The notes beneath the pieces are model-generated. The model saw only the letters and a program-made list of their open reading frames with translations. It did no database searches and was not told the origin of the DNA. A DNA stretch of 63,902 nucleotides, counting the filler, from Welwitschia mirabilis (lineage: Eukaryota): assembly GCA_051453625.1 (NCBI GenBank). It is 7 parts of one record of this genome, joined end to end, with 100 filler letters (N's around TTAATTAATTAA, not from the genome) between each part and the next. Parts side by side here need not be neighbours in the genome. Positions count along the whole stretch, not along the records: positions 24,547 to 41,050 come from JBOZIK010000001.1; positions 41,151 to 57,699 come from JBOZIK010000001.1; 5 more parts are not named here. The stretch is one strand, 5' to 3'. Positions within the stretch are counted from its first letter, which is position 1. Each line of letters starts with the position of its first letter. The translations under genes and the position numbers were made by a program. Positions 18,913 to 63,786 of the stretch are shown here, piece by piece.

Positions 18913-19012
18913 NNNNNNNNNNNNNNNNNNNNNNNNNNNNNNNNNNNNNNNNNNNNTTAATTAATTAANNNNNNNNNNNNNNNNNNNNNNNNNNNNNNNN
19001 NNNNNNNNNNNN

Positions 19013-28789: not shown

Positions 28790-31734
28790 TGTTTTTTCTT
28801 ATTGTTCATCTCATTTATTCACCTTTGTCTTTATGAGTATATGGTTATGTGGGATTTATTTTGAATAAGCATGTGTTCAAAAAAAAAAAAAAGAAAGAAA
28901 GAAAGAAAGAAAAAAAAGAGAGAATAATGATCATTATCTATTGTTTCTGTGCTTAAATACATAGTCACCATGATGTCTTATCATACTAGGGTAAATTTTT
29001 CCAAAAAAAAAAAAAACCTTTAATAGTATTAGGAGTTGTTGAATCTCCACTGAGGGATTAGTTTACCATGCTTCATAGGTTCTTACTTCTTTGACTATGG
29101 TTTCACTTCCATCATCATGGATTAAAATAAAATATTTTAAGGCTATGAGATCAATGGTGTTTTTGGTGTTATTAGAGGAATTGCTTATTTTCTAGAATCA
29201 TTGTCCTTATGATATTCCTACATGCTCATTTCACTTTTAAGGATTTGAGTGTTTTTTATATTGTTAGCAAGTGAGTTCATTTCTAGTAACTTTTGATCTT
29301 ATTATTTATTATTTGAAAACATTAGTTACTTAGCATCATCATAATCATTGCTTATTTGAGTGATACTTTATAGAGTTTTTGCATTCTGTTATGTATCCTT
29401 CATCAAGTGATTTTATGATTTATTTCATGAGGATTTTCTAGGTTTGAATTTAGGGTAGGTACACAATACTATTCATATTCCTAAGTTATCCATTTCTGTT
29501 TTGTTTTCCTTATTTGTTTTCTTATTTATTTCAAAGTCTTTTCCATATTTTTTCATTATAAATGCTTAAGACTTAATTATTTATAATTTTTCTAGTTAAT
29601 TTTTGTTTTTTTATAATTTTTATTTTTAGAAGATAATTTTCATTTTACACATCAATTTTCTTTAGTTTATGATGATCATTTTTCCCATCTTTTTTGAGTA
29701 TTTGTTATTTAATTTTATTCTTTAGTTTTAATGCATGCAGTACTATTTTTCAATAATTATGAGTTCATGGAACATTTATCTTTCTTAGCTTGGTGCATTC
29801 ACCTTCTTTATCATGCCTTTGTTTATCATGATTCTTAGTCACTTTTTATCTCTTAGACTTTTTGCTACTTTTCTTAAACCTTTATGATATTCTCTGAGCT
29901 TAATGGATTTTGCTGATATTTCTAATTTTTTAATCTTTTGAAAGACCTTGTCCTTCTATCTATCATCTAGATGATAATGTGGATGACACATAGATATTTT
30001 TTAATAATCATCATTTTCATGTTTCATCTTTTTTAGATTAGATCTAACCCTTTTTTTCCTACATAGAATATTATTTCCAGCCTATCTGTATTGCTTATTT
30101 ATATTTAAACTTTAATATTAATATTTTTAATCTTAACTTAGTGCAATACAAGATGTATTAATTCATATATGGGAGGGATAAGACATATATTTTGAAATAT
30201 TTTAAGCAAATTTTAAATTTTTAAGGGTTATTTTTACATTTTCATGAGACATATCTATAATGCACTAATCTTATTTTGAATGCTTACTATTTGAGTGATA
30301 TACATTATATATATTTTTTATTAAATCATGTACTTAACAATAAAATACTTGCATTATATTTTTCTTTCAAGAATAATACAAGCAATTCATAAGATCCTAG
30401 ATGAAGGGAATAATGTTATGATTGATTATTTTATATATATATTTACCTTGTAGATTATTCTTATAAACTCAATTTTTGATCTATAAGTATTTTTTTTTTT
30501 TTGAGTTATTAATTATTTTGATAATACATGCATATCATTTATCTAAGTTATTATGGTTATACCTTTTGATGATTATGTTTGTTATAACATCCAATTTCTA
30601 TCTTTTTAATGTGCTAAATGTTTTAAGTAAAGGACTAATGCACAAGTAAGTATTTTTAACTTATTTTTTGATGAGTATGATCGCAAGTAATTAATTTTAC
30701 AGATTGATTTTTAAGTAGCTATCATCCCCACTATCATTCAGAAATAGTCTAGATGAATCATAGTCACTTCATCTGCCAAGGTAAAACATTTTTGTTTATT
30801 TAATTTTGTGATTTATTCCTGCATACTGAGATTTATGAATTTGAGTTACATATCCCTAGATAGGATTTTATCTTATCTATTTTGGCTCATAATTATAGTC
30901 ATTCACCAACTTTGTTAAGACTGATAAGGTTAAGTGGGAAACTATGTTGTGATGCCAAATTATATGTTTTTGAAGGGGTATTCTGAGTAGTCTTGTAGAA
31001 CATTTAGATAAGTTTAAGCACAAAATAATGATTATTCAGAGTTAAGAGAAAATCATAGAAATAAAAAATACCAATATTTTTTAAGTAATTTTGGATAAAT
31101 TCTAATACTTCATATTTTGAAAAGGAAATAATGAGATTCAAGCCTAATTCAAGTTAATAAAGAGTTTCAAGAAGCCTGTTGTCCTCTCCATCATCTATAT
31201 GACATACTAGGATGATACCACTTGCATGATGAATAGGATGCTGATTGGACTGACGTGAAGGATAAATATAAAACTCTGTTGATATGGCATCATCCCTACC
31301 CTCATCTAAATAATAGCTAGGATGACCATCTAACTTTAGCAATTGTACCAAACTCTACCAAACTTCTATAATATGTAATGCACTTTCTTGTGTGGCTATT
31401 ATAATTTTATCTATGCCTATTAGTCTTATTTGTTTGTGAGTCTATTTTTGTTAATAAATATCAACTCTGCCTTTAACTTTGATCATCTTTGTTATACCAT
31501 AAATTCTCATAACAAGAGATCGAAGGGCCAAAGATCTATTTGATAGTTGCAGAGAGGGGTCTTCCTTAGTATTGGGTTGTGTCTCCTTCATTAAGGTATT
31601 ACTGCTTTGTAACAGGATGTTGGTTTGACTTTTAATGGAAATATTCTTTTTGTTTTATTCATATTTGTGTGCATATCCCTCATGATTTATGTTACTTTTG
31701 ATTCCATAATAGCTTCATATTTGTGTGCATATCC
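28790..31734 (+). mobile_element. Athila-family 3' noncoding region, PPT and truncated LTR (from 30945)
   Basis: Similar to 100-840, 27120-27440 and 20413-21800. AAGGTTAAGTGGGAAACTA-TGTTGTG junction. LTR breaks off at the PLE-derived sequence. Confidence 0.7.
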
Positions 31735-32669
31735 ATCTAGTTGCAATAATACAACACTTAGACCATAAAAGCATAAAGAAATAGACTTAGTGATGAGATG
31801 TCAAAAATAGGAATGTTTTTATAGAAATAGATTGAATTTAGGATTTAGGATAATCCCAAGGCCTAAGAGTCTTGTTAAAGCTTAAAGACCAAGGGGATTT
31901 CCTTTATAACGTTCATCACTAATGCTATAAGACACCCTTCAATTTTAAATGCAAGCTTTTTCTATACCAATTTGCTAGTTCTTCTATAAAAATAATGCAA
32001 GTACTATAACCATATTTTGTATGGTTTTGTATAGTTATCATAATTTTTAAAAATTTTCAAGAAATAAATTTCTTAAAAACTTTTTGAAAAATACTGCATT
32101 GATTTTTACTTCTAACCCAAGAATTAATGTTTCTAATGCATGAAATAATGCTCCTATGCATGGAAAAATGCCTCTGCCAAAAAGATTAATATCTCTACCT
32201 CAAAACTGATACTTGAAATAAAGTCTCTACCAAAAAGATTAATGTCTCTGCCTCAAAACTAATACTTGAAATAATGTGTTTGCCACTTGGCATAAAGTAT
32301 CACTAGCTTGAATTAATGCCTTTGACTTCTCCATTAACATTGATGCTATCATGCTTAGCTAGCTGAGCATTGACCAAATATGTATGGATAAAGCTTGAGA
32401 CCTTATAAGTAATTGCATTAATGGCCCCATCGGTGATCGCATCTATGAGAGCATGGTCAGAGGCTGCAGAGTACATGGTAGGTGGCATGGAGGGTTAAGC
32501 TAGTCATGCCTGACTAAGGATGATTGCATAGGCAATAGGTGATGTGGATCACTAAATTGATAGCACAAGCTCAGATTACATTGGCTTCGTGTGAGGCTGT
32601 GTTGATGAACTAGAAGCAGAGAAGCCGAAGGCAAAAAGAGCACAAAAAAGCGCTAACTGACAAACCATG

Positions 32670-34831
32670 AAAAAGTTTAGTGATCGTAGAGTAGATAGAG
32701 CAAAAACAATTTAATTTTGGTGAAGTTGTCCTAAATCCACACCAGATGGCCCATAATCCCCTAAAGCACTCTTCATCTTCAACATATTATTTTTTCCACC
32801 ATTTATTTTATCATTTTTATTACCATTCAAAGTATTTTCAAATTGATCTTTTGCAAAATTATCAATATTGGAATCTGAAAAATATTCAACTTCATTTGAA
32901 AAATTTTTAGCTTTATAATTTGAAAAGATTTTTAGCTTTATAATTTGAAAAGGTTGAAATGTTACCTACTTCTTCATCCTGAAAACCTGCTCCAAATCTC
33001 ATGAAAATCAGTGGGGCTATGTGGGCAGTTGCGATGACGTGGGTAGCTATGTGGATGGCTGTGTTGATGACCATCGGCATGGCTATGTTGGCAGCCATCG
33101 ACACAGTTGGCAGGATTGGCAGTTGAACTACAGGAAATACGGTTGAACCTACGTTGAGCTGGCAGTGTAAGTCTATCATGGTAGCGTCTGTTTGCTACAA
33201 GCACAAGGTGGCGTCTGTTCGCTATCGAAAAAAGGTGGTGTTTGGTTGCTACGGGCGTAGGTCTAGCACAGGCACTGCTTACTAGGACGAGAACTGCAGG
33301 CGTACAAGCCAAGTAGGAGCTACTGTCACTATGGTTTATGGCTCTATCAGTGCGCTTGGGCTGGCACTACCGATTCTCATAGGCAGTTTTGCAGGAAACA
33401 AGCAGGCAGGAGAGGAGGAAGAGGTAGGCAAGTAGGAAGAAGCAGGGGAGCGCGAGGCAGAAGATGCAAAGAAAGAGTCACTAGAATGAGAGCACACAAA
33501 GAGAGAAGAAGACGCAGAGAAAGAAGAGCTGGAACGTGAGAAATCACAGGGCCGCGAATTTAGGTCGCGAGACTGCGGACACCGCAGATGTAAGCACAGT
33601 GAGCAGGACTACGGGTGCCGTGGATGTGCGTATAGGAAGTTGGACTATGGCCACTGCGGATTAAGCCAGACCTGCATGTATCTTCATGACCGAGAGCATG
33701 TTTGAATGTGCAGTTGTGATCACAAGTAGTGAGGAGCAACCAAAGAAGGATGAGGGGTAGGAGAAGGGCCGTGAATAGGGAAGGAATTATAGTCAAAACC
33801 CATGCCATTAGAGAAAATGTCGTCAGAAAGATCTGAAGCAACGGCATCAGAATTTATTTTTGCATTGGCGAGACTGACATGGATTAATGTTGTTTTCATG
33901 CTAATGGAGATCATTTGCAGTGTCATTCAAAATTGATTCAAGTTCATCATGTGGTATAATTTTTCCCAGAACCTTGTGAAGGATTTAGAGAATAGAATTC
34001 TCTATTGGCATGACGTCGACAAAATCTTGGGCCTCCGTCTTTCATTGTAGCGTGATTTTTTTGGCCTCCTTTTTTGCTTGTTATTTCATTAACCAATCGG
34101 CACGTATGGCCGAAACCTTAAAGTCAAAAGAATAGATAATGTATTACAATACTGTTTCTTTATCTAGGATCTCAGCTTCAGGAGAAGATATAAGCGAGTT
34201 GAGATTACCTTTAGTTTTTAAAATAAGATGATTTATTTTATTTTCGAAATCTTGAACACCAACAGTAAGAACATCAATATATGTAGTCATGAAATTTGAA
34301 TTATAGTGTTCTTAGATTTGAGTTGCCGTTTTGTAAAAAAGTAGAGCAAACTCCTTTCCAGAGAGTTTAATGGCTTCAAGAATATGCTCTGGTAGCTCTA
34401 ATAGTGGTTGTTTAGAAATCAAATCTTGAACTCAATCCTCCAAAAGTGTCTTCTCATTGACTAGAGCTTGAACACGATTTTTAGAATCCATGTTTTCATT
34501 ACCAAAAGAATCGATTTGAGAACAAAAATCATTTTTCTTAATATCCTTTTCATAAGTAAGAGAGGAAAACGCTTTACCAAGATTTGTAACTTGTTCCGAG
34601 TTATCTAAAGGCATGTTTGCTATGATCTCTCTCTTTTGACTGATTTGCACATTGTAATAAAAATTCTTCAATTTGAATTCTACTTTCCTTGTAAATATTT
34701 GACTTTCATAAAGTGGGAATGAGATCATTAACCTTCCTAGAGATAGATCTTGCATGAAGAGATGACGATGCAAGTTGCCTGAAAGGGGACAAAGTTGGCA
34801 TTTCATTAGCAGGATCTAAAGTTCTGACCAT
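32670..34831 (-). pseudogene. PLE ORF1 relic (Cys/His N-terminus, probable coiled coil, Ser/Pro/Arg low-complexity region, conserved Trp/Cys block)
   Basis: ATG at 34831 just after the pseudo-LTR: MVRTLDPA/MKCQLCPLSGNLHRH...KNRVQALVNEKTLLED*VQDLIS...AKKEAKK...FRGLWAIWCGFRTTSPKLNCFCSI. A homologous ATG and N-terminus occur at 46082 (+). Confidence 0.65.
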
Positions 34832-34967
34832 TGTGACAAGAAGAAACTTAGGTTTAGGTTAAACGTAGGAAGCAATCGCTGGTTGCTAGAAAACTCTAAG
34901 AAAGAACAGAAGGAAATTTACAAGGAGAAAAAAAAATTCTAAAAAACAAGTATTCATTAGCAAAGAA

Positions 34968-35017
34968 ATAACAAAAATGCTTTCAGAGGAATTTCACCTC
35001 CCTATCAGTTGTCTTGG
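34968..35017 (-). ncRNA. Hammerhead ribozyme motif, copy A (degenerate)
   Basis: Sense strand: gacaa CTGATAG GGAGG tgaaatt CCTCT GAAA gcat TT ttgtt. Confidence 0.65.
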
Positions 35018-35099
35018 ACTTGCTTACAAATGAATGAAAAAGAGCATCAAAGCTGTAGTTTATATAAGATGGGTGAGTGGGGCTACACCTCTTAAAATT

Positions 35100-35592
35100 A
35101 AATAAAAAGAGGTATTTTATTAAAAAATAAGGTTTTATTAAAAAAGGGGTATTTTATTAAAAAAAGTGGATATTTTATTAAAAGGAGTATTTTATTAAAA
35201 GGCTTATCTTATTTTGAAAAAAAGGGGGTATTTTATTAAAATAAATGGGGTTTTTTATTTAGAAAAGGGGTATTTTAATTAAAAAAAGGGTCTTTTATAA
35301 AAAGGGTATTTTATTTTAAAAAAGGGGTATTTTATTTAAAAAAGGGGTATTTTATTTAAAAATAGATGCATTTTATTTTAAAAAGGGGTATTTTATTTAA
35401 AAAGTTGTATTTTATTTAAAAAAGGGTATTTTATTTAAAAAGGGTTATTTTATTAAAAAATAAAAGGGTATTTTATTAAAAAAGGGGTATTTTATTAAAA
35501 AATAAAAGGGGTATTTTATTAAAAACAATAAAAGGAGTCTTTTATTAAAAAGGGGGTATTTTATTAAAATAAAAGGGGTATTTTATTAAAAA
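35100..35592. repeat. About 20-bp AT-rich minisatellite expanded inside pseudo-LTR A
   Basis: More than 20 copies of about AAAAGGGGTATTTTATT(T)A. Only one unit at the matching position of pseudo-LTR B (36128-36155). Confidence 0.9.
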
Positions 35593-35785
35593 ACATCACC
35601 CATTTGATTGCTAGGTTGTAACACTTAACCCCATGAATTACAATGATAACATTACCAATTGTCTCAGAAATGGAAATGAGTCCTACATAAGTAAGAGTTT
35701 AGTGGATGTGAACTCCTTAGCTAAGTAATCGGTCTCGTGATGGCATGTCGTAAATAGGAATGTTTCTATAGGAATAGTTGGAATT

Positions 35786-35901
35786 TAGGATTCAGGGTTT
35801 AGGGTTTAAGATTTAGTTTAAAGTTAGGTTTAGGTTAAACTTAGGTTAGACTTAGGTTTAGGTTAAACTTGGGTTTAGGTTAAACTTAGGTTAATCTTAG
35901 G
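35786..35901 (+). repeat. Degenerate telomere-like tract (TTTAGGG/TTAGGT variants) between two pseudo-LTRs
   Basis: TTCAGGGTTTAGGGTTTAAG followed by repeated TTAGGTTTAGGTTAAAC. Confidence 0.75.
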
Positions 35902-36357
35902 AAATGGTCATTAGCTACTAGAAAACTCTAGGAAAAAATGGAAGGAGATTTACAAGGACAAAAAGATGCTTAAAAATAAATATTCATTAGTAAAGAAGTA
36001 AGAGAAGCACTTTTAGAGGAATTACACCTCCTCATCATCTGTCTTGGTTACAAATGAATGAAATGAACTAAGCATAAGAGTTGTGGTTTATATAGGATGG
36101 GTGGATGGGGCTATACCTGTTAAAATTAAATAAAAGGAGGTTTTTATTAAAAATACCATCCACTCCATTTGCTACGTTACAATACTTTAACCACATGAAT
36201 TACAATGATAACATTACTAATTGTTTTGAAAATGAAAATGAGTCCTACATAAGTAAGTAAGATCTTAGTGGATGTGGATTCCTTTAGCAAGTAACCGATC
36301 TCGTGATGGCACATTATAAATGGGAATGTTTCTGCAAAAATAGTTAGAATTTAGGAT
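35900..36357 (-). repeat. 3' pseudo-LTR (copy B) of the RT-bearing PLE
   Basis: Direct repeat of 34845-35793. Homologous to 45622-46066 and 48707-49095. Overlaps the last RT codons. No TG...CA ends, PBS or PPT. Confidence 0.8.
35999..36047 (-). ncRNA. Hammerhead ribozyme motif, copy B (degenerate)
   Basis: Sense strand: gacag ATGATGA GGAGG tgtaatt CCTCT AAAA gtgc TT ctctt. Confidence 0.6.
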
Positions 36358-37675
36358 TGAGGATATCCCCAAGCCCTAAGTTCCTTATCAAAGGAGAATA
36401 ATTAAGCTTGATGATCAAGGGGATTTCCTTCTTATTAATTCCACCACAAGTGCAAAGAAGCCTTAAACGGATCATCGATGAAACCTATGAGAAGCACAGC
36501 ATGAGAAAATAAGTAGGATAGCCTCATGTAGATAATCGCTAAAAGAACAAATGTTTATAAAGAGCAAATTGTCCTAAAGAGGACTTCCAAATAAGAAATC
36601 TTGTGAGCTCTCCTCTAATGAATGCTTTCTTCTAATGCGGTGGGTGGCATGACTGGAAGGAAATATATTGAAATGCATTAAGAGGCTTTTAATAATAGCT
36701 AGTGGAAAGAATTCCATTAGTAGGGAAACATGGGTTCTTAAAGATGGTTAAATCAAGGAAGCCTATTGTTTTATCAGAAACAACATGAGAAATGCAAATG
36801 TGGTTATACATAACACCATGACAAATATCAAAGGTATCATCAATATAGTGGTAGCATAAGATGAGATGCTAAGAAAAAATTGGTAATATTTTGTCTTCCA
36901 AATCATAAAGAAAATAATAGGCATAGATGACCACAAAGTTGCTACCCATTGGTATGCCACAAATTTATCTGTAAAAGGAACCATTAAATTCTAAATAAGG
37001 CTAAAGAAGAATGAGATGTATTAATGCCTTAATTACTTCAATAAATCTTTCATGATTTTTATTAGGAAGAGGATACTTTCTGAAATATCAAAACATATTC
37101 TTGTTTAAAGAATTCAAGACATTATGATTGGGAATGCTAGGATATAGGGACTCAACATCAAAAGTTAAAAAAAATGATGTTAAGGAAAAGTTTTAAGTTA
37201 GAGAGAGAATGAATGAGGGGGAGAGGGAATCGAAGAGATAATTTGGATGGTTTTTAAGGATGGGAAATAGGAGAACATGAAGAACTTTGGAGGCTAGTTC
37301 TAGGATGTAACATTTGTAGGAGCAAATTAGGCATTCTACTAAGGTAGGATTTTTGGTAAGAGGTAGAAGGTACAAGGGTTTCTTTTGAAATGAGAGTTTG
37401 GGTGATGAATTTTGAGTAGGGTTGTAAAATATCTGAGAAATAGGTTATGATAGCTTAAAGCTTAGAGTGGATCAAAAACCAAGGCACCTCATCAACCTTC
37501 TCATAAACATCATGATCATTAAGCTACTAGAGATCTTCATTCAAATACTAAATGACATCAAAACATAGATTTCCAAGTTTTTATTCGATGGTTTGATAAT
37601 GATGCTTGAATCTCATCTCAAATTTTTTAAGGCTGAAAGAAGATGAGGTAAAAGCATCCATTTGTTAGAAAAAAT
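36225..37675 (-). pseudogene. Penelope-like reverse transcriptase, decayed, with no C-terminal GIY-YIG endonuclease
   Basis: Motifs in order: IIKPSNKNL; FYLLPK; FLTFDVESLYPSIP (A); EFNGSFYR*ICGIPMGS (B); YHYIDDTF (C); FLDLTI (E); Y*KPLNAFQYISFQSCHP; FIRGELTR; RLST*GYP; RNPHPLRSY, then UTR. Confidence 0.92.
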
Positions 37676-37681
37676 CACCAC

Positions 37682-38367
37682 TGCAGTGTGAATTTATGCA
37701 ATCCTTAAGTCCTTTTAGCAAATCTTGTAAATCACAATACTTACAGAAAACACACACTAGTATAGACAAGAGTCAACCCAAATGTCATAATCCATTGAAG
37801 GCACTATGCTAAAAGTTAGAGAATTTATTTCATAAAGTATTTTAGTCTTTTATCTTTTAGTAAAAAATATAAAATTAAAAAAAAATGCAATGTAATGCAA
37901 AATCAAGATGATGAAGTGAAATGGATTAAATGCAAGTGTAATGAATTCTATTTGGATTCCAATACTCTTATCATAAGAATTAGTTCTTACAACTTAGATC
38001 AATTAGGAAGAGTTCATCACTTATTCTTAACCAACATAAACTATAATATATGCCAAACAGAATATAGATAGTACAAATATGGACATGAAATAAAATAAAG
38101 TACAATGCAAAATCTAAACTAACAAAGTTAATCTTAACAAAGATTACCCTTATGATCTAAATAAATTTATGAGCTATTACCAAATTACAATCAACTTAAA
38201 TCATAAGGGACATTTACACAATAGGATTAAAAAGCGTAATTGAATTAATCATCAACTTTACATCCAATTATAATAAAGTAGCAGCACCTCAATGGAGGAT
38301 ACTTAGTCTAATACCAAGGTAAATGTCTCTTTGTAGCTACTAGATGGACTTGTTATTCTTTAATATT
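37682..38367 (-). repeat. Athila-family LTR 3' end interrupting the PLE RT
   Basis: TGCAGTGTGAATTTATGCAAT is the reverse complement of the family LTR end; body resembles 27443-27960. Confidence 0.7.
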
Positions 38368-39289
38368 NNNNNNNNNNNNNNNNNNNNNNNNNNNNNNNNN
38401 NNNNNNNNNNNNNNNNNNNNNNNNNNNNNNNNNNNNNNNNNNNNNNNNNNNNNNNNNNNNNNNNNNNNNNNNNNNNNNNNNNNNNNNNNNNNNNNNNNNN
38501 NNNNNNNNNNNNNNNNNNNNNNNNNNNNNNNNNNNNNNNNNNNNNNNNNNNNNNNNNNNNNNNNNNNNNNNNNNNNNNNNNNNNNNNNNNNNNNNNNNNN
38601 NNNNNNNNNNNNNNNNNNNNNNNNNNNNNNNNNNNNNNNNNNNNNNNNNNNNNNNNNNNNNNNNNNNNNNNNNNNNNNNNNNNNNNNNNNNNNNNNNNNN
38701 NNNNNNNNNNNNNNNNNNNNNNNNNNNNNNNNNNNNNNNNNNNNNNNNNNNNNNNNNNNNNNNNNNNNNNNNNNNNNNNNNNNNNNNNNNNNNNNNNNNN
38801 NNNNNNNNNNNNNNNNNNNNNNNNNNNNNNNNNNNNNNNNNNNNNNNNNNNNNNNNNNNNNNNNNNNNNNNNNNNNNNNNNNNNNNNNNNNNNNNNNNNN
38901 NNNNNNNNNNNNNNNNNNNNNNNNNNNNNNNNNNNNNNNNNNNNNNNNNNNNNNNNNNNNNNNNNNNNNNNNNNNNNNNNNNNNNNNNNNNNNNNNNNNN
39001 NNNNNNNNNNNNNNNNNNNNNNNNNNNNNNNNNNNNNNNNNNNNNNNNNNNNNNNNNNNNNNNNNNNNNNNNNNNNNNNNNNNNNNNNNNNNNNNNACAC
39101 TCACAGAATTTTCTTATAGTGATGTTTTAGATTATCTAAAGGGAAAGTAATGTAATATTTACTATTGTACTTTGCCCTTGTAGAATACATTAATGAACTT
39201 TTCATGCATCATTCTTAAGATTATTACTACTTAGGTTTTACACATCAGTTTTAATATCACTGTCTCACATTATGCATACACATTATCAT

Positions 39290-40335
39290 TTTCTGCCCAT
39301 GGATGATGTCATTTTTCCCGTGCAGTTCTCCATCCCTCCTCTTCTCTTGCTCACGGCTCCTCTCCCGCTCGCGGTTGTTCTCCTACCCGTGGCTCTTCAC
39401 CTACTTGCGGCTCTCCTCCTACTCGTCGTTCTCCTACCCATGGCTTTTCACCTGCTCGCGGCTCCCCTCTTGTTCGTGGCTCTCCTCTCGCTCGCGGCCG
39501 TTTTGCCCACGACGCTTCTTCTTTTGCTCGGGGCCTTTCTCATGCCCATAGCTCTACTCTCGCTCGCCTGTCCGTCATTCTTCCTGCTCGCCTATTTGTT
39601 AGTTTCCTTACTCTCCTGACCGTATCATGTTTCCCAGCCGTGCTCACAGACACTTCAACCAAAAACACGGCAGCCATCACCGTGCTTATCAGAATGCAGC
39701 AGCTAATGCAGCAGTTAACACGGACCAGCTCAATGCAGACCAGCACAACCATGGCTTGCTCAGCCGCCTCCTTCATCAAAATCACCAGCACATCGGCCCT
39801 CGCAGACCCACTGACCATCAACCTGACAAACAGCCCACTAACCACCAACTCAACAGAAAATGAAGCGGTCCTCATGGGCCCACCAATCCTCACAGGCACG
39901 CCGACCTTTACGCACTTCAAACAAAAGTCCGCTTCCACAAAAAGCCGGTAATTTTTTAGAGACTGAATTTTTTTCGGATTCTGAATTTGAATATTTTTCT
40001 TTTCTTGAAAAAGAGTTTTCAAATCCTTCAAAAAATAGATTTGAAAATAGCTTTGGAAATAGAAAAAATGGCAGAAAAAATGGCAGGAATTTTGGCAAAA
40101 AAATGATTTTTTAAGGAAGAGGAAGAATATTTTAAAGGATTATGGACCATCTGGTGTGGCTTCAAGAAAATCTCACCAAAACTAAATTGCTCCTGCTCTA
40201 TTTGTTCAACTGTCACAAAACTTTTCCGTGACATCTTCCATGAACATCCTTCTCAACCTAGAAGGCGTTTCAATTTTTGGGGCTCTTGTGTAAATTTCAA
40301 CCTGTTCTCTCTTATTTTATTCATTAAGATGACTC
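39290..40335 (+). pseudogene. PLE ORF1 C-terminal half (5'-truncated), including an 18-bp tandem repeat at about 39352-39500
   Basis: HGSSPARGCSPTRGSSPTCGSPPTRRSPTHGFSPARGSP; EFEYFS; FKGLWTIWCGFKKISPKLNCSCSICSTVTKLF, homologous to 32670-33560 (-). Confidence 0.7.
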
Positions 40336-40345
40336 NNNNNNNNNN

Positions 40346-41050
40346 GTTCATAATTTTTCACAGAGAGAGCTCAGTTATAATGAAATCAGATTACTTGGTT
40401 ACGGCCTAAAATTTAGGCCTTGTCCTCATTCTATGGCTTATGGGGATATTATGGATGAATTTCGTAGTTTTATCAGGTGGGTACATCTTAGAGCTTATTT
40501 TGGCACTACTCCAGACCCTTCCTCCTTGGGTCATCCTTTTCTAGATCATCTATAGTATATTCGTCTTAAATTCAGAATAGCCTCCCCTTGGAATCCTCTA
40601 GTTGATGATGATATAGGTCATTTTTGTCAGCATTTGAATGATGTCATTTTAGAGAAATTCTCTTTAATGGATTTTTCTAATAAACGCATGTTTCCGCCTT
40701 ATCTTCTTTCAGCCTTAAAAAATTTAAGGCGATATTCTAGTATTGTTATCAAACCATCAGATAAAAACCTCGGAATTTATGTTTTGGATGCTATTTGATA
40801 TTTGAATGAAGGTCTCTGGCAGCTTAATGATCATGATGTTTATGAGCAGGTTAATGAGGTGCCTTGGTCCTTGATCCATTCTAAGCTTTAAGCCATTGTC
40901 ACCCGATTTTCAGACATTTTACAATCCTACTCAAAATTCATCACCCAAATTTCTATTTCTAAAGCTAAGCCTTGCACCTTCTACCTGTTGCCAAAAATCC
41001 ATAAACCCACCTTAGTAGGACGCCCAATTTGCTCCTACACAGGTGACATC
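40346..41050 (+). pseudogene. Penelope-like RT N-terminal part (second copy), cut by a scaffold linker
   Basis: One 235-codon frame with 3 stops: VHNFSQRELSYNEIRLLGYGLKFRPCP; IVIKPSDKNLGIYVLD; QLNDHDVY; FYLLPKIHKPTLVGRPICS. 40667-41050 aligns with 37675-37310 (-). Confidence 0.93.
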
Positions 41051-41194
41051 NNNNNNNNNNNNNNNNNNNNNNNNNNNNNNNNNNNNNNNNNNNNTTAATT
41101 AATTAANNNNNNNNNNNNNNNNNNNNNNNNNNNNNNNNNNNNNNNNNNNNTTCTAATATAATTTTACATAGGGCTACCTCTTTAAGCTATTCTA

Positions 41195-41507
41195 GGCCTT
41201 CTCCTTGTCCTTGATTCATTCCACAGGGATTCACATCTTGGAAACATTTTTGCTATATGTGATGGTCACATTACCTATGTGGACTTTGGGAGCATTATAG
41301 TCCTTAGTTAGCAAAACAAGAAAATATTTATTAATGTAGTAGTGCACACTGTAAATGAGGATTATGTTGAGATTGCAAATGATTTTACAAGGCTAGGGTT
41401 TGTTTCTTCTGGCACAAACATAGCTTCAATCATCCCAGCATTAGAAGTAATATGGCAAAATGCAATTGGAAAGGAACTAGCTGATTTTAATTTTAAAAGT
41501 ATCAGTG
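41195..41507 (+). pseudogene. ABC1K1: ABC1/UbiB atypical kinase ABC1K1-like fragment (catalytic loop and downstream)
   Basis: FHRDSHLGNIFAICDGHITYVDFG...S*QNKKIFINVVVHTVNEDYVEIANDFTRLGF...PALEVIWQN...LADFNFKS, recognised as plastoglobule ABC1K1 (FHGDPHPGN...VHAVNEDY...ANDFTRLGF). Stop at 41309. Confidence 0.88.
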
Positions 41508-41751
41508 ATAAGGCTAAGTGCAAGGTAGATGCATCTAAGGATGATGTTGTAAAGATTAGGAGGAAGTTTGATGTGTTCATATCTAGTTTTTTAAAACATT
41601 CTAGTAGCTTGCATTAGATGCCTAAAATGAACCTAAGTGGTCTACTCTTTTCCCTTCTGGGTTGACATCAAGTCAGCAAGGCATTATGTAGATTAGAAAG
41701 ACAGGTAAGAAAAAAATAAATATTTTTTAATTTCCTTTTTTCATATTATAG

Positions 41752-42432
41752 AATTCTAGCTTCTCTGATGTCCTATGGATCAGTGTAAAAAATGCCATTA
41801 ATCCATTTCATTACAAGAACCTGTGAAATGGAAAATTCTTTATATACTGTCAGAATTTTAACAGTGGAATCATTTTTAAAATTCTCTATGAAGTATTTTA
41901 TATTCTATTCCTCAAGTTTGTGATTAGGTCCTCAAAAGGCTTCTCACCAAATTCATCAATAATAAGCTCTCCATTATAATCTAATTCTTTTAGATTAATG
42001 TCGTTCAATAATGAAGGAAAAAAAAACTGTTCAAGAGGCATCCCAACCTCTTCTTCTCTATTTGAAAATGCGATCTGGTTTGGAAAGAAGAACATCATCT
42101 TGAAAGGTATAAAGTTCTTTCATGTAAAACTCCTAAATGATGTTTTTCCTATTTGCTAAAACGTGGTGATCTTAGATAAAAAGGGGATCCAAATTACAAA
42201 GAAGATTATGTAGTTTCTTCACATAAAATGGAACAACCTCAGAACCTCTTCCAATGACATGATTATATAGAAGACTAACCCAGTATATTCCTGGCTTCCA
42301 TAAGATATCTATGCCTTGACCAACAAAAGAAACAACTGCACCTCTTAAAGAAAAAATAGTTTCCCTCACTGTTTGTGGGGTGTATTTACAAAATAAAAAT
42401 AGATTCTATGCTTCAAATCTAACACCTCTAGT
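41752..42432 (-). pseudogene. ABC1K1: ABC1K1-like N-terminal fragment, apparently intronless, with an internal deletion
   Basis: KYTPQTVRE...RGAVVSFVGQGIDILW...EVVPFYVKKLHNLLCNLDPLFI*DHHVLANR...QDDV; NGELIIDEFGEK; DSTVKILTVYKEFSISQVLVMKWINGIFYTDP. Confidence 0.85.
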
Positions 42433-45371
42433 AAGATTCTGAAAACCAAGCATGAAGTCTCATTCTTTGCTTCATCCTTTTGACTCTGTTTCTACAAGTG
42501 TACTTTTGATTTTTTTACTAGTGTCTAGACTACAACGTTTCTTTTCCCATTCAAACAAGATAAAGGGAAGCAATCCACTGAGGAGACGGTTGGCTTCTAG
42601 GGTGCCTACAATGAATGATTATTGCAACTAAAACATGGAATTACATCTATCTAATGTTTTCATTGAAAATAATCTCTATTTCTTGAAATTTTATGAGCTT
42701 TATGAGGCTACTCATATTGACGTTACTGGCAAGATTAAACTACAAGATTCATAAACCTAAACCACAATGCATTTAAATCCTACTAAAAAGAGAATCATGC
42801 ATGCCATTTGCTAGGGATTGGCTGATACTGGTTCTAGTGACAAACAGATACCACTTTAGCAGGAGTAATGGATGCCTCTTAATGAAACTCCAATTGGGGA
42901 AAAAAAAAGGATTGTCGCTAAAAGCCTATGGATTATGTTAAGATAGACCCTTTTTATTTCTGGATTCTTGAAAGCATTTGAAGTTTCGTATTGTTCACCA
43001 CTCTTGGCTGTAGAGGAGCTTTTCAAATTTAATTTACATTTAGAAATTTGTAGCTTGAAGCATGATGCTTCTTCTTCATTACACTCCTATCCTCTCTCAT
43101 GGAATAATTCCCCATCGAGTGCTATCTTTTCCCTATTTTTCTTAATAGATGTAGGAATACCTTATCTCGCTCTAGAGCTATTGAAAGGAAAATATTACTA
43201 GACATGTATGATCTAGAGACCTAGAAATAAATTATGCTCTGCCTTTGAACAATTGCAGCAAGGTCATAATGGATCTTTTCTTTTTTAGAAATAGGGTAAA
43301 CAATATTTTCAGAAAATAGGAACATTTAAATCAAGCTCATATGATTCCTCTACGTGAGAGCTATTTCAAATCTCTTCAATTTGCTATTTTCCCATCTTTT
43401 TTTGAGAGTGAATTCTTCCTAAATGCTATAAAGTAATCTCTCATAGATCCTTTTGTAATATTTTTCATATTGGATTAGATTAAGTCTGAGAATGACTTTG
43501 CACCAAGATGTTTTCTTCTGAGAGTCAAGAGGCCAAATGCACACTAAAAGAAAGCGTGTCTGGTTTCATGTGTCCACGATGAAGATGTAAATCGTGTATC
43601 TCCACACAAGAACAAGGCATTGCTTGACATAAAGGGAAATCTGATGGCGAATGAGGAATTTGATCTATGAAGATTAAAAAAACAACATTTGAAAAGCTAG
43701 ATTCCCCTCCAATTTCCCCAAATCTTTTTTAAACACCCCCTCCTCCCCCCCATCACCCCTCCCCCCCGCTACTCATTTGTTATCCTTGATCACTTGGAGA
43801 GGAAGAGAATCATGATGGACTTCTCTTCTTCCTTTGTCCTCATCACCCACCACTCCAGCCATTCATACCTCCCATTACTTCTGCCTTAGACTAGCTTAAA
43901 TAAATGCCTTTTATCAGGCTGTCATTTTGTGAAGTGTAGTGGCCATCTTGAAGGGACTCGGGAGAAAGCAGGAGGCCTTTTAATTGCTGCATTCTTGAGA
44001 AAAATTAATTTTGAGAATCTTTCATGATGATGCTNNNNNNNNNNNNNNNNNNNNNNNNNNNNNNNNNNNNNNNNNNNNNNNNNNNNNNNNNNNNNNNNNN
44101 NNNNNNNNNNNNNNNNNNNNNNNNNNNNNNNNNNNNNNNNNNNNNNNNNNNNNNNNNNNNNNNNNNNNNNNNNNNNNNNNNNNNNNNNNNNNNNNNNNNN
44201 NNNNNNNNNNNNNNNNNNNNNNNNNNNNNNNNNNNNNNNNNNNNNNNNNNNNNNNNNNNNNNNNNNNNNNNNNNNNNNNNNNNNNNNNNNNNNNNNNNNN
44301 NNNNNNNNNNNNNNNNNNNNNNNNNNNNNNNNNNNNNNNNNNNNNNNNNNNNNNNNNNNNNNNNNNNNNNNNNNNNNNNNNNNNNNNNNNNNNNNNNNNN
44401 NNNNNNNNNNNNNNNNNNNNNNNNNNNNNNNNNNNNNNNNNNNNNNNNNNNNNNNNNNNNNNNNNNNNNNNNNNNNNNNNNNNNNNNNNNNNNNNNNNNN
44501 NNNNNNNNNNNNNNNNNNNNNNNNNNNNNNNNNNNNNNNNNNNNNNNNNNNNNNNNNNNNNNNNNNNNNNNNNNNNNNNNNNNNNNNNNNNNNNNNNNNN
44601 NNNNNNNNNNNNNNNNNNNNNNNNNNNNNNNNNNNNNNNNNNNNNNNNNNNNNNNNNNNNNNNNNNNNNNNNNNNNNNNNNNNNNNNNNNNNNNNNNNNN
44701 NNNNNNNNNNNNNNNNNNNNNNNNNNNNNNNNNNNNNNNNNNNNNNNNNNNNNNNAATTTTGAGAATCTTTCATGATGATGCTTCATTAACTACTTTTTT
44801 ATCATCCACTTAACCTTTATCTTACATTAAAACCCTTACCAAAACCTCCTCCTTCCATGATCACATATATACTTATTACTTATATGATTAAACATTTACA
44901 TACATAATGATATGTTTATCATTTATTATTATTACATTTTTTTCCTTTCAAGTATTCAGCACATAAAGAAAAATTTTATAAAATTTAAGTTTGCTTTGAG
45001 AGATTACCACAAGGGGTAAGGATGCAAATAATTAGTTCACTAATTGAGTGCATTTTACATTAGCATAAAAAAGATATAAAGAACTTAAACCAAGGATTTA
45101 CACAGGATATATTAATTAATGAGTCCAATCATAAAAATTATTTAATCCACATAAAATCACTATAGAATTTATAAATTCATTGCACATTCATTATACAATT
45201 AAAAATAAGTCATCAAGGCCATCTAGAGGGGCATAAAACAGGGGTATAAATTAAATATATTTAAAATTTAATACTTGAATTAACTTGAGTTTTAAAGCCA
45301 TCACACAGATAAATGTGAAACATTAATAATAATCATAAAAAAAATTATATGCTAAAATTTGGGATATTATA

Positions 45372-45627
45372 CTAAACCTTAAATCCTAAAATGTAAAAAC
45401 TAAAACCATGCATCCTAAACACTAAACCTCAAATCCCAAACTACAAAAAACCCCTAAATCCTAAACCTCTAAACCGTAAATCCTAAACCCTAAACTTAAT
45501 ATACCTAAACCCTAAATTTAGTTTACTTAAATCCTAAATCCTAAACCTTAAATAGTAAATCCTAAATTTAATCTACTTAAACTCTAAATCCTAAATTTAA
45601 TCTAAACCCTAAATCCTAAAGCCTAAA
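45372..45627 (+). repeat. Degenerate interstitial plant telomeric tract, (CCCTAAA)n-like
   Basis: Several exact CCCTAAA units and many TCCTAAA/ACCTAAA/CCTTAAA variants. Confidence 0.85.
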
Positions 45628-45906
45628 TTCAATCTGCTTTTGCAAAAACATTTTCATTTTTGACATGTCATCACTAAATGTGTTACTTTATGCTTTTATG
45701 GTTTAAGTGCTGCATTATTGAAATCAGATGGATAATGTTTTCTATTATAATTAGTTTTATTTATATTCTATTTAGTTTTATATTATAGTTAGTTTTATTT
45801 TATTTTGTAAATGGTGTAATGACACCCATCCATCATCGATATATATACACACATACACACCCCACTATTAAGATGCTTTTAGTCATTCATTTCAGCAAAA
45901 TGTAAT

Positions 45907-45948
45907 ATAGTTGATGAGGAGGTGGAAGCCCTCTGAAAGTGCTTTTGT
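45907..45948 (+). ncRNA. Hammerhead ribozyme motif, copy C (near-intact core)
   Basis: atag TTGATGA GGAGG tggaagc CCTCT GAAA gtgc TT ttgt. Confidence 0.7.
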
Positions 45949-48935
45949 TGTTTTGCTAATGAATCTCTATTTTTGAGCATCTCTTTATTTCTTTGAAAAA
46001 TTGTTTTTTGTTTTTTCTAGAGTTTTCCAATAGCTAGTGACCATTACTTATGATTAAGAAACCCAAGATTTTTTCATTATGATGGTTGGATATTTAAATT
46101 CTACTAAGGAAATGTGGGATTTGGTCTATTTTAGATAACTTGCAACTTCATATCTGATGGCTGAATTTATCTCTAGCAAAGTTAATGTTTTCATTGCTTT
46201 TCTACAAAAAGCTTACATTTGTATGTTGTCAATATAGATTATAGAGTTTTGGTATGATATTGTTTTTTTGTGAAGACTGAACATAGCTTTAAGAGTAACC
46301 CACTCTTCCTCTAAAACTGACTTTAATTAGAGAGTGTTTTGGGACACCAGTGTAAAGGTATTTCTTTCTTTCTCTGAAGTTGAAATTAATATCACAACCA
46401 TTCTCACTATTTGGCCATTAAAAAAGAAACCCATAAAAAAGCAAGCTATAATGGAAATAATAAAAACAAGCCAAAATAAAAGTAAAAATAGAAGTTGAAA
46501 TTTTTTGCAGATATTAAAGAATCAAGCAGAAAAAGAAAAGTTATCAAATATGCAATTTTCTCCATTTTTACAGATGTCTTTCTTGAACTACACTATCTCA
46601 TTTCTATATGATAGTAGTCCAATTACTACCTTCATTATTTTCTTAAGAAATAACAACCCCTTACAGTTGCCTTTCTACCCTTGTTCATGTCCCTGTGAGT
46701 GTACTTATTTACAGGTTTACTCGCCATCACTCCCATGCCTTTTCCTCATAGTCATGTTGTCTTTGTATGTATCTGCATCTCAAGCACCCTACTCTTTGGC
46801 ATGTTCCTTAATGAAGCATGTCATTTTCTGCACACTATAGGCATGCTCACGTTGCTCGCATCTTTCATATTTCACTTCATACTATTTGGTCTCTGTGCAC
46901 CCACAGCCTTACTTACAACTGCGTTCTTGCCCGTAGCTCATCTCATAACCACATTTCTAGCTTTTGTGTTTTACTTTCATGCTGCTTCTGGTGTTCTTTC
47001 TTGCATTCGTAACACTCATTATCATGCATGTAGTCACGCCATTTTTAAACTTGCTCGCAGTTGCGCTAATGCCAATGTTTCTAATGCACTTTTAGTCCTA
47101 CGTGGAGAACCTTTCTCTATGCATAACAACATGCCTTTCTCCACATGCAAAAACTCACTTTTATGCATTTTCAATTCTAGCTCTATTGTTCCACTAGGAC
47201 TGTGTTTGAATCAAATAAATGCAGAGCTAGAGCTTAACATGCTTGTCACACCTGCCACTCTCTGTAGGTGAATCTAGGTAGACTATTTTGTTTCTATCAA
47301 TATATGCACAAACTAGAGAGCCCGTATATTGCGGTACTCTACGTGAAATGTCAATAGAAGTATTCTATTATGTAGCGCATATGTGTTAGCACCATGTCCC
47401 GCGATCCAACATTTAGTTGAATATGTCGAGCTAATAGTGAAATGCACCCTTGGGGACCTCACGTATGGTTGAAGCTGATAGTTTCATATAAAATGGATAA
47501 GTGTGCCATTCCACCACACCTAACATATATATATTTGTTGTAGTTATTGTTGTAGTTGTTATTGCCACAAGCGATGCCATTGCATTCTGTAGAACACTCT
47601 CACATGGATGCCACACGTGCTGTCAACTTAACCAAGAGCATCACTAGTTACTTGTGAAGCCATCCATTTAAGCATAGTTCTCATCTTTTGTTTTAATACT
47701 TGGCCTCTTATCCTGTTGGACCTTACCCTTTTCTATCTGCTAGCTATGCCTTCCCTTGTGTTTTTTACCAGCTAGACCTTCCCTATGTACCTATAGTTCT
47801 AAGCGTGTTGCCTTGTCGCACTTGCACTTTTATTTTTGTGCCCTTTTTTAACATACTCCTCTTCTTCTTTTGTGGTAACTTCTTCTTTGATGCACTCCTG
47901 TTAATTCTGTGTATTTCTTAGTCAATGCTTTCTATGCTCTTTTTTCCTTCGGCTTCTTCACTTCCGGTTCTTTAACACAGCCTTATGTGATGCTAATGCA
48001 ATTTGAGCTTGCGCTATCACTTTAGCGATCTGCACCACTTACTATCTATGTAGTTATTCTTAGCCAAACACGACTAGCTCAGCGTTCCACATTGCCTGCT
48101 ATATACTTTGTAACCTTCGACCATGCTCTCATAGATACAATCACCCATGGAGCCATTAACGTAGTCACCCATGAGGCCTCAAGCTTTATCCACACATATT
48201 TTGTCAGTGCTCAGCTAGCTAAGCATAACATCATTAGTATTAATGGAGAAGTCAGAGGTATTAATTCAAGTCAGTGGCACTTTATGCCAAGTGGAAGGTA
48301 CATTATTTCAAGTATTAGTTTTGAGGTAGAGATATTATTTCACGTGTCAGTTTTAAGGCAGAGAATTAATTTTTTTTTTTTTACAAAGGCATTATTCCAT
48401 GCGTAGGAGCATTATTTCATGCATCAAAAACATTAATTCTTATGTTAGAGGTAAAAATCAAGGTAGTATTTTTTAAAAAATATCTAAAAATTTTTAATTC
48501 TTGAAAATTTTTAAAAATTATAAAAATCATACAAAATATGGTTATAGTACCTGCATTATTTTTAAAGAAGAACTAGCAAATTAGTATAAAAAAGGCTTGC
48601 ATTTAAATTGAAGGGTGTCTTATAGCTTTAGTAATGAACTTTGTAAAGGGAATTCCCTTGGTCTTTAAGCTTTGGTGAGATGCTTAGTCCTTGGGGTTAT
48701 CTTAAACCTTAAATTCCATCTACTTCTATAAAACCATTCTCATTTTTAACATGTCTTCACTAAATCTGTTACTTTATGCTTTTATGGTCTAAGTATTACA
48801 TTATTATAACCGAATGAATAATGTTTTATATTATATTTAGTTTCACTTTATTTTGTAAGTGGTGTAATCACATCCACCCATTGTATATATACCACTATTG
48901 AGATTCTTTTAGTCATTCATTTCAACAAAATGTAA

Positions 48936-48979
48936 AGTAGCTGATGAGGAGGTGGAATCCCTTCGATAGTGCTTCTATT
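48936..48979 (+). ncRNA. Hammerhead ribozyme motif, copy D (near-intact core)
   Basis: agtag CTGATGA GGAGG tggaatc CCTTC GATA gtgc TT ctatt; stems I and II pair with G-U wobbles. Confidence 0.72.
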
Positions 48980-49269
48980 ATTTTGCTAATGAACCTCTAT
49001 TTTTTAGCATCTCTTTATCTCTTTGTAAAATTATTTTTCATTTTTATTAGACTTTTCTAGTAGTCAGTGATCATTACATAAGATTAAAAACCCTAAACGC
49101 TAACTGTAAACATTAAAGAAACCGTAAACCCTAAAGAAATCCTAAGAAACCCTAAACCTTAAAGAAACCTTAGGAGATCCTAAACCCTAAACCCTCTTTT
49201 TTTTATTATAAAAACCTCTTTTCATAAAATGCTTATTCTTAATTAAGAAAACCCCTTTTCATTACAAGA

Positions 49270-63677: not shown

Positions 63678-63786
63678 GTTTCTTTTCTTTTTTTTTTTCC
63701 TCCTGCCCACAAGTCTCTTCATTGCTCATATTTTTCTTTTGAAGGAGTTAATTGATCTAAAGGCAATACGAAATGGTCTTTCACAG

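Follow-up and report, generated by a model that had tools for sequence, protein, structure and literature searches.

Decayed copies of a probable endonuclease-free Penelope-like element family with hammerhead-like motifs and telomere-like tracts at the 3′ ends in Welwitschia mirabilis

The window analysed here, a 64-kb stretch of DNA (63,902 nucleotides, linkers included) from the Welwitschia mirabilis assembly GCA_051453625.1, very probably holds long-dead copies of a single Penelope-like element (PLE) family that lacks an endonuclease (EN), a land-plant lineage of the Coprina/Athena kind. EN-free PLEs are the closest mobile relatives of telomerase. Read on the sense strand, the anatomy kept in the copies consists of a reverse transcriptase (RT) without EN, a 3′ untranslated region (3′ UTR) of ~100–200 nt with a TATA box, a hammerhead ribozyme motif, a spacer and a degenerate CCCTAAA tract, and the best explanation of the hammerhead is a putative type I form with a 2-bp helix III. 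This agrees with the core of a sequence-only reading of the same DNA, namely EN-free PLEs with a putative hammerhead in the 3′ module, reverse-complement telomere repeats, and both RT-bearing and RT-less copies, which holds. The element family is probably a further member, in what is probably a further host lineage, of an already described kind.

Reverse transcriptase relics and their intact relatives

The analysed reverse TRANSCRIPTASES are relics 1 and 2 (Table 1), each read through with X at stops. Against a hidden Markov model (HMM) of 14 intact relatives they scored 315 bits (independent E-value 2e-97) and 205 bits, respectively, and a faint third match of the same model fell at 35673–35819 (−). 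By tblastn with 11 relatives, relic 1 spans 36251–37684 (−) and covers residues 128–618 of a 626-aa Cryptomeria protein, and relic 2 spans 40334–41050 (+) and covers residues 19–257, which bears out the two PLE-type relics first read at 36225–37675 (−) and 40346–41050 (+). The motifs FDVESLYPSIP, PMGSNF, YIDD and, in the thumb region, KPLNAFQY..HP survive in relic 1, and the DKN motif is intact in relic 2 (SDKNLG). The DKN and other RT motifs, the thumb and the scores against the HMM of relatives identify the predicted RT type as Penelope-like. The two relics are 81.5% identical over their overlap, and the scrap of an RT C-terminus in a 5′-truncated copy is 81% identical to 36128–36362. In relic 1, in-frame stops number 17 across the 479-codon RT match and 22 across all 566 codons translated, and all copies of the element are dead.

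A protein search with relic 1 returned 49 matches at E ≤ 1e-3 among 6093 candidates, the best being from Cryptomeria japonica, an "uncharacterized protein" of 626 aa (37% identity over 84% coverage, E 6e-70). GIY-YIG was present in two of the 49, both of them distant. Pfam recognised no RT family in either of the read-through relics, and a PDB sequence search with the relic returned nothing.

No RNA dataset is among the 13 dataset rows that hold 31731–38360. One poly(A)-selected RNA run contained 46 reads, all partial on the stretch and 90–95% alike. These reads match a 57-nt piece (36737–36793, −) with 2 differences and then run into flanks that are homologous but different; by hand translation, the flanks keep the RT frame, with FPTDGIL in place of the relic's FPTNGIL, and share the internal deletion of the relic. 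The reads appear to stem from a diverged, transcribed paralogue, and there is no evidence of expression for this locus. A very high-copy repeat (37682–38367), with a partial copy at 22082–22230, adjoins the 5′ break of relic 1; from 37682 on, the summed contig depth is 10^3–10^4 versus ~3–7 for exact pieces, and many contigs diverge at that position.

Intact relatives were collected in one scan of metagenome contigs, which gave 80 loci, 47 of them tabulated and 13 printed for tract orientation. Many of these loci contained an open reading frame 1 (ORF1) of 600–900 aa that lies directly against, or overlaps with, an intact RT of ~660 aa, and their layout places a TATA box and a type I hammerhead 250–1100 nt after the RT, the box lying ~33–40 nt ahead of the hammerhead. 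A CTGATGA...GAAA match follows the RT in 21 of the 47 tabulated loci (many of the others have less than 500 nt of flank), and runs of CCCTAA or CCCTAAA were found in 15 of the 47; the telomere-repeat runs are C-strand on the sense strand in all 13 printed loci. In a distant relative (L049), the hammerhead, which has a long helix III, lies 1.2 kb after the RT and is followed by ~70 nt and (CCCTAA)15 at the contig end. Another locus (L019) contains two head-to-tail units, 4.94 kb apart and 72–75% alike, with a hammerhead between one RT and the next ORF1.

Tracts of (CCCTAA)n were also observed inside the long ORF1 of intact relatives (L019:5358–5660, L019:751–838, L014:5101–5160, L018:2492–2527 and L018:7263–7286). 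They are read as Asn-Pro repeats, and on either side of them the protein is conserved between two units without a change of frame. With a repeat length of 6 nt, any copy number of (CCCTAA)n keeps the ORF1 frame. Either ORF1 holds a telomere-complementary tract, or it is complete only across a unit junction.

The 3′ module, its hammerhead-like motif and the telomere-like tracts

Four 3′ modules (A–D) and a fifth, cut copy were found, with identities of 69–84% among them. They had been read as pseudo-long terminal repeats, and are better described as the 3′ end of the element: the order is the last 40–60 codons of the RT, a 3′ UTR with TATA box and hammerhead, a spacer and a C-rich tail, and the start of the module in C, D and the cut copy is a remnant of the last RT codons (..IPLVFKL..LGL..LN.. 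in 48601–49200). The spacer from hammerhead to telomere-like repeat is ~113 nt in D and ~95 nt in B, within a range of about 95–115 nt, and module C ends in one degenerate telomere unit. The TATA box CCTATATAAAC is exact in module B (36096–36086), and module D has a TATA-like box; with up to one mismatch, CCTATATAAAC has four matches in the window, a number equalled in 14 of 100 shuffles, so that the box is not enriched and is descriptive only.

All four modules align at one CUGAUGA...GAAA motif, with one to three core changes in every copy. The majority consensus of the aligner, CTGATGA-GGAGG-loop-CCTCT-GAAA-GTGC-TT, has an intact core (11 of 11 bases); copy D (GAUA for GAAA) and copy C (UUGAUGA) each keep 10 of the 11, and no copy keeps all of them. 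The hammerhead of copy D has CUGAUGA at 48941–48947, a 5-bp helix II and GAUA at 48965–48968, with the cut predicted after 48974. The drawn structure comprises a helix I with a 7-bp outer and a 5-bp inner part, a helix II of 5 bp and an A-U pair as helix III. Of its 72 cells, 69 pair, versus 42–58% when the 3′ strand is slid by one to three columns, and two helix I pairs show a compensatory change (G-C to A-U and C-G to U-A).

In the relatives, 99% of the 216 cells of the hammerhead alignment pair and 7 of 9 pairs covary, which none of 500 shuffles reached. A core-only model (R2) of 38 positions was built from 24 distinct hammerheads of related loci, which had been picked by a regular expression (CTGATGA...GAAA plus a 4-bp helix II, with helices I and III unconstrained); its calibration was short and its E-values are rough. 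The best match of R2 in the entire window, on both strands, is 48938–48977 (+), at full length, with 13.6 bits and E ~0.026. It was claimed at the outset that each of the four modules carries a hammerhead: the four modules and the aligned motif stand, and D alone matches the family model. One of the four hammerhead copies (D) is, by the family model, still recognisable, and three are eroded. The putative helix III, A-GUGC-U, has the same build of 2 bp and a 2-nt loop as the ACUAGU of the relatives; short palindromic helix III forms have been linked to action as dimers (from excerpts of PMC4209133).

The telomere-like tracts are C-rich on the sense strand in all cases and lie 3′ of modules D, B and A and 5′ of two truncated copies. 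Tandem Repeats Finder reported degenerate 7-mer arrays at 45453–45628 (CCTAAAT, 25 copies), 49088–49191 and 35783–35901. CCCTAAA occurs 10 times on the + strand of the whole window, 8 of these within 45452–45607 and 49091–49185, against ~2.8 expected per strand from base composition. Telomere-like tracts at the edges of the elements, part of the initial description, were thereby confirmed. Along the minus strand of scaffold A, the order is RT relic 1, module B, its tail, the RT scrap, a minisatellite, module A, its short tail and the RT-less copy E1, an arrangement that is a head-to-tail stack.

In an alignment of five junctions, relic 1, D and E1 (the full forms) read through the last codons of the RT; in the scrap and copy C, the sequence resembles telomere repeats as far as ATCCTnAATCCTAAATTC, and homology begins there. 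ATCCTnAATCCTAAATTC encodes I-L-N-P-K-F, which equals two CCTAAAT units, near the RT C-terminus. Since the nearest kin of the scrap is relic 1 and that of copy C is module D, the two truncations, which affect copies of different subfamilies, look like two separate events at one site. A complementary DNA (cDNA) that stopped at ATCCTnAATCCTAAATTC would end like a telomere G-strand and could then have been capped by telomerase.

The tracts might also be explained as a microsatellite expansion of the RT's own CCTAAAT dimer, or as common interstitial repeats, the elements having inserted inside chromosomes by another route. The array before copy C does have the consensus CCTAAAT, the 7-mer of which the RT's coding DNA holds two units at this junction, and the neighbouring 19-nt unit AAAAAGGGGTATTTTATTA, single in module B, did expand ~24-fold by slippage in the truncated copy; moreover, the tracts are degenerate and the scaffolds are not placed at chromosome ends. 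However, modules D, B and A too are followed by tracts, with no dimer of this kind ahead of them, every tract is C-strand on the sense strand, the relatives show the same layout with clean (CCCTAA)n, and CCTAAAT is one C-to-T change from the plant repeat in a window with a CpG observed/expected ratio of 0.27. Such an origin of the tracts seems improbable.

The two RT-less copies, E1 and E3, have a 3′ part of 0.9 kb in common (79% identity), which is taken as non-coding because all six frames are equally similar. The first 1.9 kb of E3 matches nothing else in the window and is followed by a module of 0.7–0.8 kb (47929–48700) common to E1; this 0.8-kb module is not detectably RT-derived except for its last 65–100 nt. 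The 200-nt block of E1 (32671–32853) recurs in the region before relic 2 (40029–40225), to which E1 also has weak, collinear, low-complexity similarity. E1 has no hammerhead, because an unrelated repeat (30298–31719) cuts it off at 31730. Two RT-less derivatives had been proposed, and both stand, with the 0.9-kb 3′ part in common and with the qualification that E1 is cut and hammerhead-less. The last 0.47 kb is all that these copies have in common with the RT-bearing ones, and they would therefore have depended on that RT.

The presence of an upstream ORF1 in three partial copies, proposed along with these derivatives, was not borne out. Comparison of the three upstream regions by blastn and tblastx gave ~200 nt common to two places, with no coding signal, and nothing at the third; Pfam found no family in 10 upstream frames. 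When the N-terminal portions of the proteins from Ginkgo and Closterium were compared with the window by tblastn, the best E-value was 2.1 and nothing was usable, and the long open reading frames (at least 200 aa; ORF1 and RT) of 19 related loci gave no non-RT match below E 0.5. ORF1 is thus not demonstrable here from sequence, and the open frame at 39307–39948 would fit its position only.

Placement of the reverse transcriptase and setting of the copies

A search with the intact Cryptomeria protein gave 261 relatives at E ≤ 1e-5. Among the 120 of these 261 that were listed, the named ones are from Cryptomeria (5), Ginkgo (1), Selaginella (1), Closterium (8), Microbotryum (1) and Acropora (1), and none bears an angiosperm, fern or moss name. 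In the protein atlas, the shared families are DUF8422, HTH_animal and RVT_1, and the nearest clusters are mostly of Rotifera. A careful maximum-likelihood tree of 39 rows, made without a TERT root and without curated Athena, Coprina and Neptune sequences, puts relic 1 in a clade of 17 rows together with Selaginella, Ginkgo and Cryptomeria (support 100/99) and, within it, in a 16-row subgroup that excludes Selaginella (94/94). Relic 1 is not nested among the Cryptomeria rows; its branch is long (2.1) and its composition odd. A separate clade with strong support unites two named Closterium proteins with two unnamed kin, and only a weak link (78/42) ties it to the 17 rows. The seven rows that bear GIY-YIG, one of them a frog protein, group in their own clade (98/97). 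The sequence-only reading had suggested a tree with TERT and named PLE RTs; in the present tree, the RT groups with Selaginella, Ginkgo and Cryptomeria, apart from the EN-bearing clade.

The RT is followed by no endonuclease. The alignment of relic 1 reaches residue 618 of 626 and so stops no more than 8 residues short of where EN-less relatives end. Pfam found no family in three frames of the 700 nt after relic 1 (35600–36300, −) or of 48600–49200 (+), and GIY-YIG is absent from all 14 aligned close relatives. The description of the elements as endonuclease-deficient is supported by this reach of relic 1, by the lack of a Pfam family downstream and by a position outside the EN-bearing clade. 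The RTs could alternatively derive from an EN-bearing PLE (conifer Dryad, the Penelope/Poseidon group, or Chlamys/PLE-X), the endonuclease having decayed or been deleted: EN loss inside EN-bearing clades is documented (in the excerpted part of PMC8557442), the copies are badly decayed, and relic 2 is cut ahead of the C-terminus. However, relic 1 extends to the C-terminus of EN-less relatives of 580–626 aa and is followed within ~100 nt by the UTR and hammerhead module, GIY-YIG is found in no downstream frame, the seven EN-bearing rows are a separate clade, and the CxC N-terminal motif of PLE-X was not seen in the aligned relatives (read by eye). An EN-bearing origin is therefore very unlikely.

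The window has 34 N runs. Six of these are N44-TTAATTAATTAA-N44 linkers, TTAATTAATTAA being a 12-mer six-frame stop linker, and the window is consequently a concatenation of seven scaffolds, in which features on two sides of a linker have no physical linkage. The RT relics and modules are distributed over two scaffolds (A and B), each of 16.5 kb, that show no sign of neighbourhood, so the elements do not form one locus; the single physical cluster at 31731–49195 that had been proposed falls apart at the artificial linker between these two unlinked scaffolds.

The stretch 31731–38360 is present in the 13 dataset rows mentioned above, which represent four studies and two organism labels, and at least half of its words are present in 6 of the 13. 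Logan contigs of three DNA runs matched 35764–36141, 36193–36633 and 36969–37711 with 0–1 differences at a depth of 3–7; no contig among them spans the entire stretch. The GC content of the window is ~27%, with the CpG depletion already given, and its telomere repeat is of the CCCTAAA type. As a rough estimate, a depth of ~5 in a run of 3.6 gigabases would put the genome at some 0.5–1 Gb, far below that of a conifer, which speaks against conifers and Ginkgo, and the low GC is at odds with Selaginella moellendorffii. The best named matches of the copia integrase fragment are from Cajanus (54%) and Tanacetum (~46%), which marks it as plant-type and nothing finer. That the region is contamination or a misassembly, foreign to the plant genome, is hardly credible: the assembly is highly fragmented, the two halves are connected by an artificial linker alone and no single contig spans the entire stretch, but contig pieces of 295–441 nt, matching with 0–1 differences, come from DNA runs that represent three studies and two organism labels, the depth of the element pieces is low and similar to that of other exact pieces of the stretch, and the relics sit among plant-type copia/gypsy remnants with the low GC and CpG depletion of the window.

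Table 1. Features of the window; positions count along the whole stretch
Feature	Position	Strand	Remarks
RT relic 1	36248–37684	−	PLE RT, 5′-truncated, at least one frameshift
RT relic 2	40334–41050	+	N-terminal 240 residues, cut by scaffold end
5′-truncated copy, RT C-terminus scrap	35567–35819 (or 35567–35796)	−	starts at ILNPKF codons (ATCCTnAATCCTAAATTC)
3′ module A	34854–35126	−	of truncated copy; hammerhead core 35008–34981, CUGAUAG ... GAAA
3′ module B	35886–36153 (or 35886–36250)	−	directly after relic 1; core 36038–36011, AUGAUGA ... AAAA
3′ module C	45613–46064	+	truncated at ILNPKF codons; core 45911–45938, UUGAUGA ... GAAA
3′ module D	48699–49093 (or 48620–49087)	+	best-kept hammerhead 48938–48977
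RT C-terminal remnant in module D	~48630–48720	+	..IPLVFKL..LGL..LN..
Fifth, cut 3′ module copy	31730–31851	−	in RT-less copy E1
Telomere-like tail of module D	49088–49195	+	C-strand, 4 exact CCCTAAA, 28-nt higher-order period
Telomere-like array capping 5′ end of copy C	45380–45630	+	consensus CCTAAAT, ~25 units, 4 exact CCCTAAA
Telomere-like tail of module B	35783–35901	−	CCTAAA/CCTAAG variants, period 17/28; runs into truncated copy
Short C-rich tail of module A	34833–34877	−	reverse complement
Minisatellite	35104–35593	.	19–20-nt unit AAAAAGGGGTATTTTATTA, ~24 copies, inside 3′ UTR of truncated copy
RT-less copy E1	31730–32853	−	cut at 31730, no hammerhead
E1, shared 200-nt block	32671–32853	−	
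E1, 0.8-kb non-coding module	31851–32648	−	
E1, start of 3′ module	31730–31851	−	
RT-less copy E3	46064–49195	+	body 46064–48620
Region before RT relic 2	39197–40230	+	sits where relatives carry ORF1
Open 214-codon frame	39307–39948	+	Ser/Pro/Arg-rich, 18-nt repeats
Scaffold A	24547–41050		both RT relics and two 3′ modules (A, B)
Linker between scaffolds A and B	41051–41150		artificial, no biology
Scaffold B	41151–57699		other two 3′ modules (C, D)
All artificial linkers	13324–13423, 18913–19012, 24447–24546, 41051–41150, 57700–57799, 61456–61555		
Ty1/copia integrase remnant	12352–12666	−	
Gypsy-type RT remnant	15958–16275	+	by eye
Retropepsin-like remnant	2909–3196	−	by eye

Several other features were observed in the window. 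The repeat that cuts E1 is unclassified and present in two copies of 1.4 kb (20417–21814 and 30298–31719) with 82% identity. Beyond the linker after relic 2, 41151–41614 (+) holds ABC1 atypical-kinase-like pseudo-exons (a weak Pfam match, E 0.006, below the cutoff), in which the motif reads FHRDSHLGN; in ABC1 kinases, a motif of the FHADPHPGN type is usually conserved. A long AT-rich hairpin at 49417–49526 has a weak likeness to the MIR9486 precursor (38.7 bits versus a gathering score of 100) and matches it on both strands, in the manner of a palindrome like that of a miniature inverted-repeat transposable element. At ~63580–63680 lies what we take to be a CAD-like first exon.

Proposed attachment to chromosome ends, known systems and meaning

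For the EN-free family proposed here, the published model for elements of this kind, together with the anatomy of the copies, suggests the following course. The C-rich 3′ repeats of the element RNA would base-pair with the G-rich overhang where a chromosome end lies exposed, the element RT would copy the RNA from the 3′-OH of the overhang, and telomerase would then recap the new end. The outcome would be head-to-tail stacks of often 5′-truncated copies with telomere repeats between them, and an unfinished cDNA ending at the ILNPKF dimer might look enough like a telomere G-strand to be capped as well.

Several observations weigh against this account or parts of it. As for the placement, Microbotryum, which is Coprina according to excerpts of PMC8557442, has no supported connection with the plant clade, and the tree contains neither a TERT outgroup nor curated references for Athena, Coprina or Neptune. 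As for the telomeres, we infer priming from anatomy and literature. Neither scaffold is placed at a chromosome end, and the element copies have gene fragments and other transposons only a few kb away; the tracts are degenerate, with no run of two exact CCCTAAA units in the window, and relic 1 lacks telomere repeats at its 5′ break, which adjoins the very high-copy repeat. As for the hammerhead, 150 of 500 shuffles reach the observed pairing of the four sequences, the structure having been drawn from these same sequences, and the helix II pairing of the relatives was partly selected by the regular expression. Rfam reported no hammerhead in the whole window (E ≤ 1) or in two 151-nt pieces (E ≤ 10); it likewise reported none at gathering score in 20 related loci, at least nine of which hold textbook cores, and because it missed these the Rfam test is a weak one here. 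A first model with flanks included (R1) gave 36 AT-rich chance matches and none at the four sites, and R2, run on their own small stretches, gave 3.9 bits for C, 3.0 for A and nothing at the motif for B.

Published systems are described below from excerpts of the papers cited, PMC10473749 apart. Athena and Coprina are described as two clades of PLEs without EN that join the G-rich overhangs of telomeres, aided by reverse-complement telomere repeats beside the hammerhead (PMC8557442, PMC12477314). Coprina is known in fungi, the diatom Phaeodactylum, shrimp and Selaginella moellendorffii (Repbase Sm1/Sm2), and the model proposed for it involves RNA–telomere homology, reverse transcription by the element RT and recapping by telomerase (PMC13159263); the Coprina EN(−) elements trace to Gladyshev & Arkhipova 2007, cited in PMC13159263, PMC8557442 and PMC4209133. 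In plants, the Selaginella elements have canonical type I hammerheads (PMC4209133), EN(−) PLEs are listed for Pinus taeda and Picea abies (Lin, Faridi & Casola 2016, cited in PMC9033089, Table 1), and Penelope is stated to be absent from other gymnosperms and from angiosperms (PMC10473749). The literature covered contained no report of an EN-free PLE in plants beyond Selaginella and the two conifers; Repbase, Dfam and supplementary lists may hold some.

The copies resemble Coprina in a PLE RT with DKN and thumb, in the lack of GIY-YIG, in flanking telomere repeats and in a hammerhead-like motif next to them. The RT falls together with a Selaginella protein, which may be Repbase Sm1 or Sm2, and the plant members of Coprina are reported to have canonical type I hammerheads (PMC4209133), as do the relatives here. 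On the other hand, Coprina is said to have one open reading frame (PMC13159263), whereas the intact relatives have ORF1 and RT; Microbotryum lacks a supported join to the plant clade, and the copies here are dead. With Athena and the Terminons of bdelloid rotifers, they share the EN-free RT and, in the intact relatives, the combination of ORF1 and RT (PMC8557442, PMC12477314), as well as head-to-tail stacks of 5′-truncated copies and a 3′ end in which a hammerhead-like motif, a short spacer and reverse-complement telomere repeats follow one another. The mostly rotifer origin of the nearest protein atlas clusters is a lead only, given a tree without a named Athena sequence. Athena differs in that it is described as rotifer-specific and basal, and the copies here have a spacer of ~95–115 nt and no giant composite units.

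Among named relatives, the proteins of Cryptomeria and Ginkgo, together with the conifer EN(−) PLEs, come closest, since they score best (37% identity), belong to the same length class and have no EN; the relic differs in not being nested among the Cryptomeria rows. The EN-bearing Dryads of conifers (Penelope/Poseidon) are likewise plant PLEs with RTs and hammerhead-bearing pseudo-long terminal repeats, but they have GIY-YIG and insert genome-wide, whereas the RT here has no EN and lies outside the EN-bearing clade. Animal non-LTR (long terminal repeat) retrozymes have been proposed to be non-autonomous derivatives of PLE pseudo-long terminal repeats (bioRxiv 10.64898/2026.07.22.740005). The RT-less copies are similar to these in sharing the 3′ module, with its hammerhead-like motif, with the RT-bearing element, and different in that they are two decayed copies of ~3-kb units with no tandem short units.

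A further, tentative suggestion, which we consider doubtful as a whole, is that an old, vertically inherited streptophyte lineage of telomere-attaching EN-free PLEs reached a plant group with a mid-sized, AT-rich genome and without a reported PLE and later died out there, its unfinished cDNAs being capped at ILNPKF. Behind it stands the tree order, with Closterium first, then Selaginella, and then Ginkgo and Cryptomeria together with this host. Capping at ILNPKF would explain why two independent truncated copies start at that exact spot.

As the copies are dead, their value is historical and comparative, not functional. EN-free PLEs are rare in plants, and the relics would add a plant host beyond Selaginella and the two conifers, one that may be outside the known groups. 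Together with the unannotated relatives in Cryptomeria, Ginkgo and Closterium, they would show the lineage through much of streptophyte evolution and would give plant telomere biology a native example of the capping of chromosome ends by a retroelement. The common truncation point at a telomere-like dimer would provide a simple, testable handle on how the cDNA of such elements is finished.

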